A DNA stretch of 10,231 nt. Origin: a virus. The position numbers and the translations under genes were made by a program. The DNA lies in the UHGV virus genome UHGV-0306718, one strand, 5' to 3'. The notes beneath the pieces are model-generated. The model ran no database searches. It was not told where the DNA came from and saw only the letters and a list, made by a program, of their open reading frames with translations. This document shows, piece after piece, positions 51-8,352 of the stretch; the stretch's first letter is position 1, and every line of letters starts with the position of its first letter.

Positions 51-1466
51 ATGACTACGTGGCAACAGGATATTAATTCTGGTGGGTTTCTTGCTGGCAT
101 CGGGGCGCAAAATGAGAATGCGCCAAAGGCAAGCGACATTAACGCAACGCTTGGTCTGATCCGCGAAAACAATGAATTGGCTCGATCAGGTGCAAATAAC
201 GTTGCTCTGACAGGTCTTCGTGGTCTGGCTGGAGTTGCTGATATTTACAATCAGGAACAGCAACAGAAAGCGATTAGTGCGTTCAATAAGGTTCACGCTG
301 ATGCATGGGCTTCTGGTGATCCATCGGGACTATTTAAGTTTGCCCAGGAAAATCCAGCGTTTGTTGCACAGGCACAACAGGCGTTTTCCGGTCTTAATGA
401 TCAGCAACGCAACGATATGGGCGATTTAGCCATGAGGGCTAACGTCGCTCTTTCTCAGGGACCGGAAGCCTACAGTAAATTCATTACTGACAACAAGGAC
501 AGGTTAAATCGCGTGGGGGCGAATGCTGACTGGATGATTCAGACAGGTATCCAGAATCCAGAGCAGCTATCACACATGTTGACTACTATGTCTCTCGGTG
601 CGCTTGGACCAGAAAAGGCGTTTGCTGTTCAGGACAAGATGGCTGGTCGTGAAATTGACCGAGGCAAACTTGCAGAGACAATCCGCAGCAATCAGGCTGG
701 TGAAGCACTTCAGGCGAGAGGGCAAAACCTTTCCTATCAGTCAGCAATGACTGGGCACAATATCGCAGCACAACGCTTGGCTCTGGATCAGCAAGAGTTC
801 GGGTTTAAGATGCAGCAAGCGCAGGAAAAGGCTCAGCAGTTGATTAGCGAAGCACCTAAGCTGTCAGTAAACATGGAAAAAGGCATCGAGACGGCTGTAA
901 ACAATGCCACAGCATCATCAAACTCAGCCAATTCCATGAGTGCGCTTGCTCAACAGTTCAGAGCAGAAAAACCAACGACCGGCTTGTTCGGTAACGCACA
1001 GAACATGTTCGCAAAACTTACCGGAAGCGATACGACATTGCGTGATTTGCGCATTCGCCAAAATGCCCTTGTTAACAGTCAGGTTCTTAAATTCCTACCT
1101 CCCGGCCCAGCAACGGATAAAGACGTTGAGATCGTTCGACAGGGTGCGCCAACTGACATGGATAACCCTGAGACGGTCGCAAGATGGCTTGATGCAATGG
1201 CAAACCTTGAGCGACGAAACGCGCAGTTTAATGAGTTTAAAGCTGAGTGGATGAGCGCGAATGGCAACCCTGGACAATCGCGTAATGGCGGTCAGATATT
1301 GGGGTTGGATGTTAAAAAAGGTGAATCATTGGGGAGTGCCGTTAAGCGGTATATGTCAATGAATACTGACGCAGCGCCAGCACAAGATTCGACACCTTCA
1401 GGAGAACCACGGAATCAGGTTGGATCATATACCTCAAAATCAGGCATTCAATTTACGGTGGAATGA
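51..1466 (+). CDS. 20: Ejection / DNA-transfer protein gp20 (P22 gene 20 family)
   Basis: 471-aa ORF, the same length as P22 gp20 as I recall it; Q/A/N-rich composition typical of P22 E-proteins; sits immediately upstream of and overlaps a gp16-like gene; AAGGG-type SD upstream of the ATG at 51. Confidence 0.85.
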
Positions 1467-3304
1467 TGAAAGTAACTGCAAACGGTAAGACATTTACCTT
1501 TCCTGATGGTACGAGCACCGAAGATATTGGCACCGCCATTGATGAGTATTTTGCTGGTCAGGCTGTTCAGCAACAAACAGTTAATCAGGCCAATAATGCA
1601 CCAACACGGGAAGAACCATCATTGATGCAACAAGCTGGCGATTGGCTCACTGGTGGTCAAAGTGCAGGGCAAATTGCGGAACAGGCTGGTCGTGGTCTGG
1701 TAAACATACCATTTGACGTATTGCAGGGCGGCGCAAGTCTGATTAATGCAATCAGTCAGGGGCTTGGTGGCCCCAAGGTTTTGGACGATGTCTATCGTCC
1801 AGTCGATCGACCAACAGACCCTTATGCGCAAGCTGGAGAAACAATTGGCGGGTATTTAGTTCCAGGAGTTGGAACGGCAGGAAGCATGGCTATTGGATCA
1901 CTGGCAGAGGCCGCAAATCAGAAAGGCGATTTCGCACAAAATGCAGCTAAAAATGCCGGAGTTAACCTTGCCGCTCAGGGGGTTCTTTCCGCAGCAGCAA
2001 AGGGAATAGGGCGTGGAATAACGGCTATAAAAGGTGATATTGCGCCAGAAGTGGCGAAGAAAATTGCCACATCAGAATCGATGGGCGTGACACCAATGAC
2101 ATCTGATGTTATCCCGCCGAAAAATGCTTTCACTCGCGGCCTAACTCAGGATGCCGAGGGGGCTTTGCTCGGGACAGGCTCAAAGCGAGCGGAGCAATAT
2201 GCAACGCGTAGTAAGCTGGTAAGTAATTATTTTGACCGTTTTGGTGAGTACAACCCTGATGATGTGGTGAAATCTCTTACCACCACGTTAAGGGGGCGGA
2301 AGGATGCCGCTGGCGCTGTTATCAATGACGTCACCAATAAAATGGGTAATGCCGCAGTTGATACCACAAATACCATGAATGCTCTGAATACAGCGATCGC
2401 AAGACAGGAACGGCTTGGGACGTCTGCCAATCAAAGCCTGCTTACATCCTTGCGTAACCTACGTGAAGAATTAGCAAACCCTGCAACTGATTTGGATGTT
2501 ACGTTTGATCTCTTGCGTCAGCACAGAACAGCATTTAGATCTAATGTTCAGGGAGATGCTATGGTCTTCCCAAACCAGGCAAAAGCAGCTACCAATATGG
2601 TAGAGAATGCAATGTCAAAAGATCTTCGTAACGCAGTTGCAAAAAACCTCGGTGCATCAGACGCAGCAAAATACCTTAAAGCAAATTCCGATTATGCAAA
2701 CGTTTATAATAAGGTGCTTAATAAAAACATTGCTAACAAGCTCAACAAGGCAAGCAGTGAAGCCAGTCCTGAACTTATAAATACCGTTGTATTAAGCAGA
2801 AAACCATCTGACGTGAAACGAATCTGGAGCGCATTGGATAATAAAGGGAAAGATGCTATGCGTGCAGCTTATGTCAGCAAAATAGCGGAAAAGGCCGGTG
2901 ACTCTCCAGCCAAGTTCATCACTGAAGTTAATAAGCTGAAATCTCAGTCAGGCGGTGAAATTTACAACACTATTTTTTCTGGAAAGCACATGAAAGAGCT
3001 TGATTCTCTTCATGAAGTTCTACAGCAAACAGCAAGGTCAGACACCGCAAATGTAGTAACTCAGACGGGGCAATCGCAAGCCAACAGGATAAGGACGATT
3101 GGCGCAACTGCGACTCTTGGCGTATCAATGGGGCTTGAGGCTGGTTTCGGTGCAATGATGCGCTTGTATGAGTCAAAAGCAGCAAGGAATGCTCTCTTAC
3201 GTTTGGCAAACACCAAAGCAGGAACACCAGCCTATGAAAGAGCGATAAATAACGCTGCGAATGCCATCAGACCGCTGTTTGCTACTGAGGCAACACAGCA
3301 GTAA
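1463..3304 (+). CDS. 16: Ejection protein gp16 (P22 gene 16 family)
   Basis: 613-aa ORF starting [16 protein letters not shown]; its start overlaps the gp20 stop (ATGATGA), suggesting translational coupling; position and size match P22 gene 16 (about 609 aa). Confidence 0.85.
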
Positions 3305-3328
3305 CGTATGGGAAATTGGATTCAATCG

Positions 3329-3718
3329 CTAACATTTTCTTTTTACTTTTCCAACAAAAGCTTTGGTTGAATCCATATTTCCATAACCGGAAATGGTTTT
3401 TGACATTAAAACTGTTCCAGTAGGATGTATTACCCATGAGTCGATAACGCGTTGAGTTTCGCCATTCGCGCCGATTCCTATGATGGAGTTTTTAGACAAT
3501 GCTTTGTAAGCCATGCCGCCCGCATCTGTCCCAGAATATGTGATGCTGGCATCTTCACCGTTTGTCTTAATGATGAATGTTCCACTAAAACCATCTTCTT
3601 CCGGATGGAAATTATTTCGTTCTGAATAGCTTATTCCGCGCATATCTCCAACGACCCAGCACTCTGCTGTAGCCCCAAAAGATATGAATAAGAACATAGC
3701 AGTAAGAAATTGCTTCAC
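3329..3718 (-). CDS. Hypothetical secreted (periplasmic) protein, 129 aa, probable accessory (moron) gene
   Basis: GTG start at 3718 with a perfect SD (AAGGAGG, 5-nt spacer); N-terminus MKQFLTAMFLFISFGATA|E looks like a Sec signal peptide with an AxA cleavage site; mature part has Cys near both termini; local GC about 35% versus about 50-55% in neighbouring virion genes. The longer 201-aa ORF in the track is an upstream extension with no RBS. Confidence 0.6.
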   Translation of the reverse strand: MKQFLTAMFLFISFGATAECWVVGDMRGISYSERNNFHPEEDGFSGTFIIKTNGEDASITYSGTDAGGMAYKALSKNSIIGIGANGETQRVIDSWVIHPTGTVLMSKTISGYGNMDSTKAFVGKVKRKC

Positions 3719-3748
3719 GCCAACCTCCTTAGTTTTGCGCAGGATACC

Positions 3749-4114
3749 ATGAAAAAAGTTAACATTGGAAACGTACCAAAGATGCTCGTTCCGCTCTTTG
3801 AGAGCGGTACAATTGTGTTTTGTAGAGACTTTCCAGAATGGCAACGCCTGCATCAAAAACTTGGCGTTGACGTGCATGACTCGGACGCCAACGGAGCGTC
3901 TCATACAATGAGTAGCGAGAATGGTGTTTTGCATGTGATAGGCGTGTTCAATGGCAAACTATCTACTATTGCCCATGAGTGCGCTCACATGGCATTCGAT
4001 ATCTGCTCAAGGGTAGGTGTTGATGTTGAACCAGGAAGAGCCAACGAGACTTACTGCTACTTAATGAGCAGGCTTGTTGAGTTCTGCGAGCGACATATCA
4101 AAAAGCCGGAGTGA
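3749..4114 (+). CDS. Hypothetical protein with HEXXH (zinc-metallopeptidase-like) motif, 121 aa
   Basis: ATG at 3749 preceded by AGGA; contains HECAH followed by a downstream Glu (NETYCY); divergently transcribed from the secreted-protein gene with only 30 bp between the two start codons. Family not recognised. Confidence 0.55.
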   Translation: MKKVNIGNVPKMLVPLFESGTIVFCRDFPEWQRLHQKLGVDVHDSDANGASHTMSSENGVLHVIGVFNGKLSTIAHECAHMAFDICSRVGVDVEPGRANETYCYLMSRLVEFCERHIKKPE

Positions 4115-4127
4115 CCTGGCTTGATTA

Positions 4128-4307
4128 TTACTTTTTGCTGTCTGGAGTTCGCTTATCCAATACCCAGCCATGACCTGGCTTTGTTGTTGGTGGAAGCCTT
4201 TCGTTGTCCTTGACGGTTGCAAAATTGTCTTTCTTACCGCCGCGTGGGCCAACTTCTTGGTATATTCCGCCGTTTTTTCCTGTGTTTTCACCTGGTTTTT
4301 TCGCCAT
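4128..4307 (-). CDS. Small hypothetical protein (59 aa), resembles the YjzC-like small-protein family
   Basis: Internal ATG at 4307 preceded by GAGG with a 6-nt spacer; sequence MAKKPGENTGKNGGIYQEVGPRGG...PPTTKPGHGWVL recalls the PG..G.Y.E.G signature of YjzC-like proteins (from memory, unverified); convergent with the HEXXH gene. Confidence 0.5.
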   Translation of the reverse strand: MAKKPGENTGKNGGIYQEVGPRGGKKDNFATVKDNERLPPTTKPGHGWVLDKRTPDSKK

Positions 4308-4343
4308 GATATACCTCAACATACACCCGTTATTGGGCGATTA

Positions 4344-4372
4344 AATATTGATCTCATTTTATAAGTAGTCAA
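4344..4372 (-). promoter_or_regulatory. Candidate sigma70 promoter for the small YjzC-like gene
   Basis: On the minus strand: TTGACT (-35, plus coords 4367-4372), 17-bp spacer, AATATT (-10, 4344-4349); about 30 nt upstream of the SD. Confidence 0.3.
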
Positions 4373-4390
4373 TATGGCCCAGGTAAATGC

Positions 4391-4421
4391 AAAAATTAAC
4401 CCACCTTCAGGTGGGTTTTTT
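4391..4421. terminator. Bidirectional intrinsic terminator at the 3' end of mnt
   Basis: 8-bp stem AACCCACC / GGTGGGTT with a 4-nt loop; followed by TTTTT on the plus strand and AATTTTT on the minus strand; the mnt stop codon sits in the loop. Confidence 0.6.
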
Positions 4422-4658
4422 GTACAAATCCTTCAGCGTATCAAACACCATCTTCTTAACAAGCTCTGACTGCTCATCAGCGAGTCGTTCTGCATCGTCG
4501 CGATATCCAGTCACAGGCGATGGTTTTGATAGAGCATCTTGGACGATTTGTAACAACTCGGAGTTCATTGATCTCCCATTCGCCTCCGCCCTGAATTTTA
4601 ATTTCTCCCTTACTTCCATAGGCATACGGAAGTTAAAGTGCGGATCATCTCTAGCCAT
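4407..4658 (-). CDS. mnt: Mnt repressor (ribbon-helix-helix; maintenance of lysogeny, represses Pant)
   Basis: 83-codon ORF MARDDPHFNFRMPMEVREKLKFRAEANGRSMNSELLQIVQDALSKPS... is essentially identical to P22 Mnt as recalled. Confidence 0.95.
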   Translation of the reverse strand: MARDDPHFNFRMPMEVREKLKFRAEANGRSMNSELLQIVQDALSKPSPVTGYRDDAERLADEQSELVKKMVFDTLKDLYKKPT

Positions 4659-4748: not shown

Positions 4749-4910
4749 ATGAAAGGAATGAGCAAAATGCCGCAGTTCAATTTGCGGTGGCCTAAAGAAG
4801 TATTGGATTTGGTACGCAAGGTGGCGGAAGAGAATGGTCGGTCTGTTAACTCTGAGATTTATCAGAGAGTAATGGAAAGCTTTAAGAAGGAAGGGCGCAT
4901 TGGCGCGTAA
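4749..4910 (+). CDS. arc: Arc repressor (ribbon-helix-helix)
   Basis: 53-aa protein [53 protein letters not shown], near-identical to P22 Arc; GAGGTGA SD; the longer track ORF from 4686 is an unsupported upstream extension. Confidence 0.95.
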
Positions 4911-8049: not shown

Positions 8050-8352
8050 ATGATGAATATAGAAGTTGATATAACACCAATTCTTCACGCACTTTGCGCT
8101 GTTGTCGCACAAGTTCTGGTTGGTCTTTTTACCGGAAACTGGGCTTACGGTGCGATAGCCGGTTGTACGTTCTTCATTGCGCGTGAACACACCCAGGCAG
8201 AATATCGCTGGATTGAAATGTTCGGGCATGGCAAGCGTATGAATATGCCGTGGTGGGGTGGTTTTGATCCACGCGTGTGGGATGTAGGAAGCCTTATGGA
8301 TTTTTCTTTCCCAATTATCGGATGCTTATTGGTATGGATTCTTGCATCGTAG
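8050..8352 (+). CDS. Hypothetical small inner-membrane protein (100 aa, about 3 predicted TM segments)
   Basis: ORF with three hydrophobic stretches (ITPILHALCAVVAQVLVGLF, AYGAIAGCTFFIA, FPIIGCLLVWILAS); occupies the position between tailspike and att/int where P22-like phages carry O-antigen-modifying conversion genes; weak SD. Confidence 0.45.
   Translation: MMNIEVDITPILHALCAVVAQVLVGLFTGNWAYGAIAGCTFFIAREHTQAEYRWIEMFGHGKRMNMPWWGGFDPRVWDVGSLMDFSFPIIGCLLVWILAS

Follow-up and report, generated by a model that had tools for sequence, protein, structure and literature searches.

SieA of phage P22 and Hex of phage 434 are the described proteins closest to the gene analysed here, the former by genomic position and the latter by sequence. 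SieA, which occurs as types A, B, and C, is expressed from the prophage, is located in the envelope, and blocks DNA entry of P22-like phages; it is an inner-membrane protein of 3–4 helices with a cytoplasmic FxRYPxEAxxFNK motif, and the gp7/gp20/gp16 conduit is thought to be its target (PMC10883804). Leavitt et al. found that 85 bp upstream of sieA is enough to obtain functional SieA from a single chromosomal copy, and that, of 66 sequenced P22-like phages, only 22 carry sieA (PMC10883804). The stretch between gene 16 and gene 9, where sieA resides, is the ‘ant moron’ of Villafane et al. and is known to be highly variable (PMC2629481).

Hex has been studied from a different angle. According to the 434 study (PMC3564112), hex belongs to the prophage PRM operon, in which it shares a transcript with the 434 repressor, and its name, ‘heterologous exclusion’, goes back to Susskind and Botstein, as cited there: P22 is excluded by Salmonella lysogens of λ imm434 but not by hex- lysogens. 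Shkilnyj et al. used the longest hex ORF, of 158 amino acids, and found that overexpressed full-length Hex was toxic; a stable fragment, sHex, begins at E43 of that ORF and, in vitro, makes the 434 and P22 repressors less prone to RecA-stimulated cleavage, while deletion of hex led to ~30-fold more spontaneous induction in a recA-dependent manner (PMC3564112).

Superinfection is also stopped, at the stage of adsorption or of DNA entry, by T4 Sp and Imm, T5 Llp, phi80 Cor, and Ltp of the Streptococcus phage TP-J34, all of which resemble the protein described below in being small, phage-encoded, and targeted outside the cytoplasm (see also the review PMC11436027). They are not homologous to it and, unlike the latter, which lacks a lipobox, Llp, Cor, and Ltp are lipoproteins.

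The locus and the start of the gene

The window, i.e., the whole stretch of 10,231 nucleotides analysed here (virus genome UHGV-0306718), comes from a P22-like prophage, of whose late region it forms the right end (Table 1). No complete E. coli genome was found to contain the whole window at a coverage of ≥80%. Between gene 16 and the tailspike gene, it carries on the minus strand, which reads CTAAGGAGGTTGGCGTGAAGCAA there, a Hex-like gene whose product reads VKQFLTAMFLFISFGATAECW...KRKC.

Table 1. Features of the window, with positions counted from its first nucleotide.
Feature	Position	Strand	Remarks
gp20 ejection protein	51-1466	+	phrog_917
gp16 ejection protein	1463-3304	+	phrog_770
24-nt spacer, gene 16 stop to cassette stop	3305..3328	.	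left-hand cassette junction
Hex-like CDS	3329..3718	-	129 aa; GTG start; TAG stop 3329-3331; phrog_2651, E 2.9e-61
Mature domain E19-C129 (predicted)	3332..3664	-	111 aa; all-beta meander barrel; Cys20 invariant; W95 and Cys129 in at least 90% of 43 members
Sec signal peptide, codons 1-18 (predicted by heuristics)	3665..3718	-	(fM)KQFLTAMFLFISFGATA; cleavage predicted before E19 (ATA/EC)
GTG start codon	3716..3718	-	right-hand cassette junction; aligns with annotated P22 sieA GTG
Leader and promoter region common to P22 sieA	3719..3800	-	80/82 bases identical
Shine-Dalgarno AAGGAGG	3724..3730	-	5 nt before GTG (spacer TTGGC); identical in P22 upstream of sieA
Counterpart of annotated P22 P_sieA	3749..3779	-	AF527608 feature 13861-13891, mapped by offset +1215 from 2534-2564
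Divergent 121-aa ORF	3749-4114	+	phrog_1365, E 1.7e-39; PGAP-annotated in E. coli
orf59a-like 64-aa ORF	4128-4322	-	phrog_3202
mnt	4407-4658	-	Pfam Mnt match
arc	4752-4910	+	Pfam Arc match
ant			after arc and before tailspike in gene order
Tailspike, 663 aa	5982-7973	+	
Hydrophobic 100-aa membrane ORF	8050-8352	+	phrog_1443 (function not assigned)
Integrase ORF	8996-10069	+	

The motif AAGGAGG is not significant by itself, with two copies in the window against 0.9 expected and at least two copies in 46 of 200 shuffles; the significance of the Shine-Dalgarno–GTG start derives from its conservation across loci. We compared 80 related loci, namely IMG/VR viral contigs holding close relatives at 88–99% identity, found by close alignment. 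The protein is 129 amino acids long in all 80 when counted from the aligned start codon. That codon is a GTG behind AAGGAGG or a one-base variant in 68 loci, and an ATG behind a different leader in the remaining 12. Codon 3716-3718 is the sole start codon conserved throughout the set, and it is also found in distant homologs. In addition, a base-level alignment with P22-pbi (AF527608) places the annotated sieA GTG exactly on the window GTG. The ribosome-binding site, 5-nt spacer, and GTG start of the original prediction were thus located at the coordinates of Table 1, and the start coincides with that of P22 sieA.

Two other translation starts can be entertained: ATG 3934, yielding a cytoplasmic protein of 201 residues, or Met8, yielding 122 residues and no working signal peptide. 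The 201-residue ORF is open in the window, at 3329-3934, and RefSeq carries the 122-residue form (WP_001334102.1). The upstream in-frame extension with its ATG start 72 codons upstream is present in only 14 of the 80 loci, however, and in 12 loci a stop codon lies three codons upstream of the gene; moreover, the extension is antisense to the conserved phrog_1365 gene, which overlaps most of it. Likewise, Met8 has no Shine-Dalgarno sequence ahead of it and is missing or shifted in homologs (e.g., P0005, P0015); codon 1, by contrast, is a start codon in every case, and position 2 is K or R in every GTG-type allele. Both alternatives are therefore barely credible. Because the protein is always 129 amino acids long in the 80 loci and the upstream extension is open in so few, the 201-residue ORF is, by this comparison, spurious. 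It had been expected that gene finders would choose this ORF and hide the GTG; the ORF exists, but public annotations give 129 residues in many cases and 122 residues from Met8 in PGAP, and none gives 201.

The divergent 121-residue ORF, probably P22 hkcC, has its start codon 30 bp from that of the Hex-like gene, and the P_sieA counterpart falls within its coding sequence. It bears a HECAH motif, and phrog_1365 is without an assigned function. The adjacent orf59a-like ORF gives a weak YjzC-like Pfam match (E 0.0017) that stays below the gathering score. At the other end of the window, the 100-residue ORF directly 3′ of the tailspike gene is possibly another accessory membrane protein of the prophage. 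The integrase gene is not intact: a segment of 193 bp (10016-10208) has the reverse orientation and is flanked by perfect 23-nt inverted repeats (9993-10015 and 10209-10231), of which the right one extends to the end of the window. Re-inverting the segment in silico gives an intact integrase C-terminus, ending in ...VYNKHDWIEAQRKAYELHADKLFWHIRSISD and the stop, and the inversion is either a real event or an assembly artefact. A 23-nt direct repeat, 83% identical between copies, lies just 3′ of the 100-residue ORF (8352-8374) and just before the left inverted-repeat arm in the integrase gene (9970-9992); it may be an attachment-site remnant.

The sieA slot and its cargo

Upstream of the gene, the similarity to P22 is almost complete. 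A megablast search of phage genomes found 98% identity to P22 and ~50 relatives across positions 3716-4400, breaking exactly at 3716, the last base of the start codon in the orientation of the gene. A simple consensus promoter scan did not detect P_sieA, nor was a terminator found after the gene, so the promoter assignment rests on the P22 annotation and the identity to P22. On the opposite side, the 24-nt spacer next to gene 16 marks the left-hand junction, and loci with a matching gene 16 end and other cargo have a different spacer, of 17 nt. Wherever a gene 16 match is retained (77 loci), the gene adjoins gene 16 in convergent orientation, and it sits in the gene 16-to-tailspike region, not beside cI, in all 80 close relatives. 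At the level of sequence, these comparisons show the Hex-like gene to be a precise gene-for-gene replacement of sieA, from the start codon to the gene 16 stop. The comparative evidence also supports the suspicion that the gene is a moron.

With SieA, the protein thus has in common the slot between genes 16 and 9, the orientation opposite to the late operon, the promoter region, the Shine-Dalgarno sequence, and the GTG. It differs from SieA in sequence, with no similarity (E 1.0), and in architecture, having one cleavable signal peptide and a soluble beta-barrel, both predicted, with no later hydrophobic segment, in place of the membrane helices of SieA. Identity with SieA was rejected on these two grounds, i.e., the E-value and the lack of a transmembrane segment after the signal peptide.

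The use of the slot extends well beyond these two genes. The exact leader AAAACTAAGGAGGTTGGYGTG was found in at least 120 viral contigs, and the ORFs that start at the GTG behind it belong to at least 12 unrelated families, SieA included. Among the matches listed, the cargo is Hex-like in 20 loci, SieA type A in 11, and one of two ~109-residue families with an N-terminal anchor and a coiled coil in 20 and 19 loci; the others listed include membrane proteins of 62, 75, and 116 residues and signal-peptide proteins of 99 and 68 residues. In 10 of the 12 cargo families listed, a strongly hydrophobic stretch lies at the N-terminus or further inside the protein, and one more family begins with a weaker sequence resembling a signal peptide. 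With one leader in front of so many unrelated families, the sieA slot behaves as a fixed expression site with swappable cargo. We also considered whether the cargo is tied to a particular gp16 type and rejected the idea, as gp16 of the window’s type (97–99% identical) occurs with several different cargos; the window gp16 itself is 75% identical to that of P22.

Homology, predicted export signal and predicted fold

The family profile matched by the protein, phrog_2651, has no assigned function, and searches of Pfam, NCBIfam, and PADLOC returned no family for it; a sequence search of the PDB gave nothing meaningful (best E 0.35). A tblastn search against phages returned full-length, 27%-identical matches beside the repressor gene in Sf6 (gene 38), HK446, HK633, Sf101, and 434, and the match in 434 is annotated ‘repressor protection protein’, i.e., Hex. 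The alignment with 434 Hex covers residues 1–129 (pairwise BLASTP E 3e-12; tblastn E 9e-5) and shares the signal peptide, ECW(I/V)V, ETW, and STK(A/S)FVG...C, including an FVGxVxGxC motif and the C-terminal cysteine. An exhaustive HMMER search yielded 125 cluster representatives at E ≤0.001, nearly all 122–137 residues long, and phrog_2651 is matched by 43 of 43 diverse members, Hex included. By this full-length homology with 434 Hex and Sf6 gp38, the gene is shown to encode a Hex-family (PHROG 2651) protein, with features predicted to make it a secreted one.

Hex and the window protein are alike in length class, in expression from a prophage promoter (for the window gene, presumed from P_sieA), and in the trap set by the longest ORF, of 158 residues for Hex and 201 in the window. 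They differ in location: hex lies directly downstream of cI in the PRM operon, whereas the window gene occupies a late-region slot under P_sieA. In the piece of 434 examined, hex is at 2429-2905, and its annotated start overlaps the cI stop by 4 nt; a distant member in a Yersinia lambdoid prophage overlaps the stop of cI (S24 peptidase) by the same 4 nt, and other distant members are located in integrase-bearing islands. The position downstream of cI, not shared by the window gene, is a trait of the prototype’s locus and not of the protein family.

The signal-peptide call is based on sequence heuristics and conservation. The N-terminus has Lys2, an 11-residue hydrophobic core, hydropathy that peaks at 2.27 over 10 residues, and Ala at both -3 and -1 of the predicted cleavage site, and the mature part is hydrophilic (GRAVY -0.33), with no transmembrane segment (best 19-residue hydropathy 0.77). 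Among the 43 diverse members, a K or R within the first six residues and a hydrophobic core are found in all 43, small residues at -3/-1 in 39, and a C-terminal Cys in 42. The classical signal peptide ahead of a Glu, as initially proposed, is therefore also the outcome of the heuristics, with its n- and h-region features conserved family-wide, and the mature length of about 110 residues agrees with the 111 computed. The proposed cysteines near each terminus are likewise in place, at mature residue 2 (Cys20) and at the extreme C-terminus (Cys129); Cys20 is invariant both in an alignment of eight close homologs and in the 43-member set, and Cys129 is invariant in the former.

The boundary between signal peptide and mature part is also a recombination junction. 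The 12 ATG-type loci carry an unrelated sequence (MKLIIAMAFLVFSFSVSA) in place of the leader and signal-peptide codons 1–18, with the mature part still 97% identical. The swapped codons have pS 0.90 and pN 0.42, against pS 0.11 and pN 0.012 in the mature part of the same loci. A swap of this kind is what would be expected of an interchangeable export signal. Purifying selection acts on the mature part, with a pooled pN/pS of 0.18. By its sequence features, the Hex family as a whole looks exported, and it is very likely that the window gene encodes an exported Hex-family protein, in the sieA slot, that starts at GTG 3716-3718.

Structure prediction and a Foldseek search, which were among the checks first suggested for this protein, returned an AF2 model with pLDDT 86 that forms a small all-beta meander barrel, and Foldseek matches that are generic. 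The small 8-stranded soluble barrels compared include the Cap15 barrel, NHBA, the C-domains of TbpB and HpuA, and fatty-acid-binding, retinoic-acid-binding, and avidin-type barrels; sequence identity is ≤18% among the top matches, with Foldseek E >0.01, and these fold matches point to no ligand. In a barrel of this kind the first and last strands pair, so that the Cys20–Cys129 pair, conserved across the family, would be placed to close it by a disulfide.

The same boundary sheds light on the published fragment of Hex. In the 434 translation, E43 of the 158-residue ORF is E19 of a 134-residue Hex, i.e., the first residue after a predicted cleavage site between ANS and ECW. This coincidence speaks for export of Hex, as does the toxicity of the overexpressed full-length protein. 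By alignment, sHex covers approximately the first five of nine strands. Because it is without a signal peptide and spans only this part of the barrel, sHex is unlikely to be the native form.

Function and its alternatives

As an overall explanation of the locus, we favor a periplasmic Hex-family exclusion protein, a reading that we consider reasonably probable. The location of the gene in the sieA slot under P_sieA and its homology to 434 Hex strengthen the view that it blocks superinfection from the periplasm. As to its parts, superinfection exclusion by analogy with SieA and Hex is moderately likely, and a periplasmic block of DNA delivery is a tentative proposal, somewhat short of probable. 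The proposed course of events divides into four steps. (i) Expression: the gene would be transcribed from P_sieA in the lysogen. (ii) Export: the product would follow the Sec pathway and be cut by signal peptidase I after Ala18. (iii) Folding: the mature protein would form, in the periplasm, a soluble 8-stranded-type beta-barrel closed by the disulfide. (iv) Exclusion: the barrel would bind a component needed by incoming P22-like phages, so that superinfection is blocked at DNA delivery. The most likely target would be the gp7/gp20/gp16 trans-envelope ejection conduit; a cell-wall hydrolase carried in the virion and a partner in the host envelope are further candidates. The Hex-like protein would thereby do the job of SieA, its likely functional analog, from the periplasmic side and not within the inner membrane. 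At 27% identity to Hex, it may have diverged in function and have a different target range.

The published model of Hex suggests a quite different role, that of a cytoplasmic prophage stabilizer that binds the prophage repressor, damps its RecA-stimulated autocleavage, and lowers spontaneous induction. The recA-dependent, ~30-fold rise in induction upon hex deletion speaks for it (PMC3564112), as does the ability of sHex to stop cleavage of the P22 repressor as well as that of 434, given that the window prophage is P22-like. Against this, signal-peptide features and a terminal cysteine pair are typical of the family members examined; these sequence features argue that native Hex-family proteins act outside the cytoplasm, and the in vitro effect was obtained with a fragment that has no signal peptide and forms a partial barrel. 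By our reading, the hex deletion also put a cat cassette just downstream of cI, so that polar effects on the cI transcript are possible. In the window, finally, the gene has no link to the repressor operon and lies in the sieA slot instead, and we regard repressor protection as its role here as improbable. Less remote, though still rather unlikely, is a lysogenic-conversion factor that alters the envelope for the benefit of the host, such as a lysozyme inhibitor, a small-ligand binder, or a serum or stress resistance factor. The structural matches are unspecific, the only relative with a phenotype excludes a phage, and the slot is the one used by sieA. No Pfam match to MliC/PliC or to another family was obtained, and a periplasmic lysozyme inhibitor of the MliC/PliC type was rejected for that reason.

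A location in or on the outer membrane, as a beta-barrel or as a receptor-masking lipoprotein like T5 Llp or phi80 Cor, is very improbable. Glu precedes the Cys at the predicted cleavage site (ATAEC) where a lipobox, [LVI][ASTVI][GAS]C, would be required, and a lipobox occurs in only two of the 43 members; the lipoprotein reading was rejected for this reason. An outer-membrane barrel was likewise rejected, in view of the hydrophilic mature part and a KRKC C-terminus, with family C-termini that vary and have no aromatic beta-signal ending. To our knowledge, all known 8-stranded outer-membrane proteins are longer than 111 residues. Receptor masking is further at odds with the way in which P22-like phages adsorb, which is by O-antigen and not by a protein receptor (PMC3741392).

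Some of this was already known, namely the variability of the region and Hex itself, and the gene is present in databases as a hypothetical protein, with a single GenBank note, in the record of phage Emek, of the similarity of orf129 to Sf6 gp38. Our literature search found no earlier report that Hex homologs occupy the sieA slot, placed exactly at the start of sieA and under P_sieA, and no function for Sf6 gp38. Nor did it find any account of export features across the family, of sHex beginning at the predicted mature N-terminus, or of the dozen alternative cargos behind an identical leader.

The locus provides one concrete answer to what P22-like phages without sieA carry: a homolog of Hex placed under the expression signals of sieA. 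It thereby links two old, poorly understood exclusion genes, P22 sieA and 434 hex, and the exported look of the whole family conflicts with the sole biochemical model for Hex. The interchangeable cargo families, at least 12 in number, are candidates for new exclusion mechanisms that act on the podovirus trans-envelope DNA conduit. A joint reading, possible although we would put it below an even chance, is that the Hex family consists of periplasmic DNA-entry blockers and that the sieA slot is a plug-in site whose constant promoter, Shine-Dalgarno sequence, and GTG serve a dozen or more unrelated exclusion proteins, mostly envelope-targeted. If so, the published cytoplasmic role of Hex would result incidentally from expressing a half-barrel without its signal, or from polarity on cI, and the slot would offer a ready-made list of new superinfection-exclusion families.
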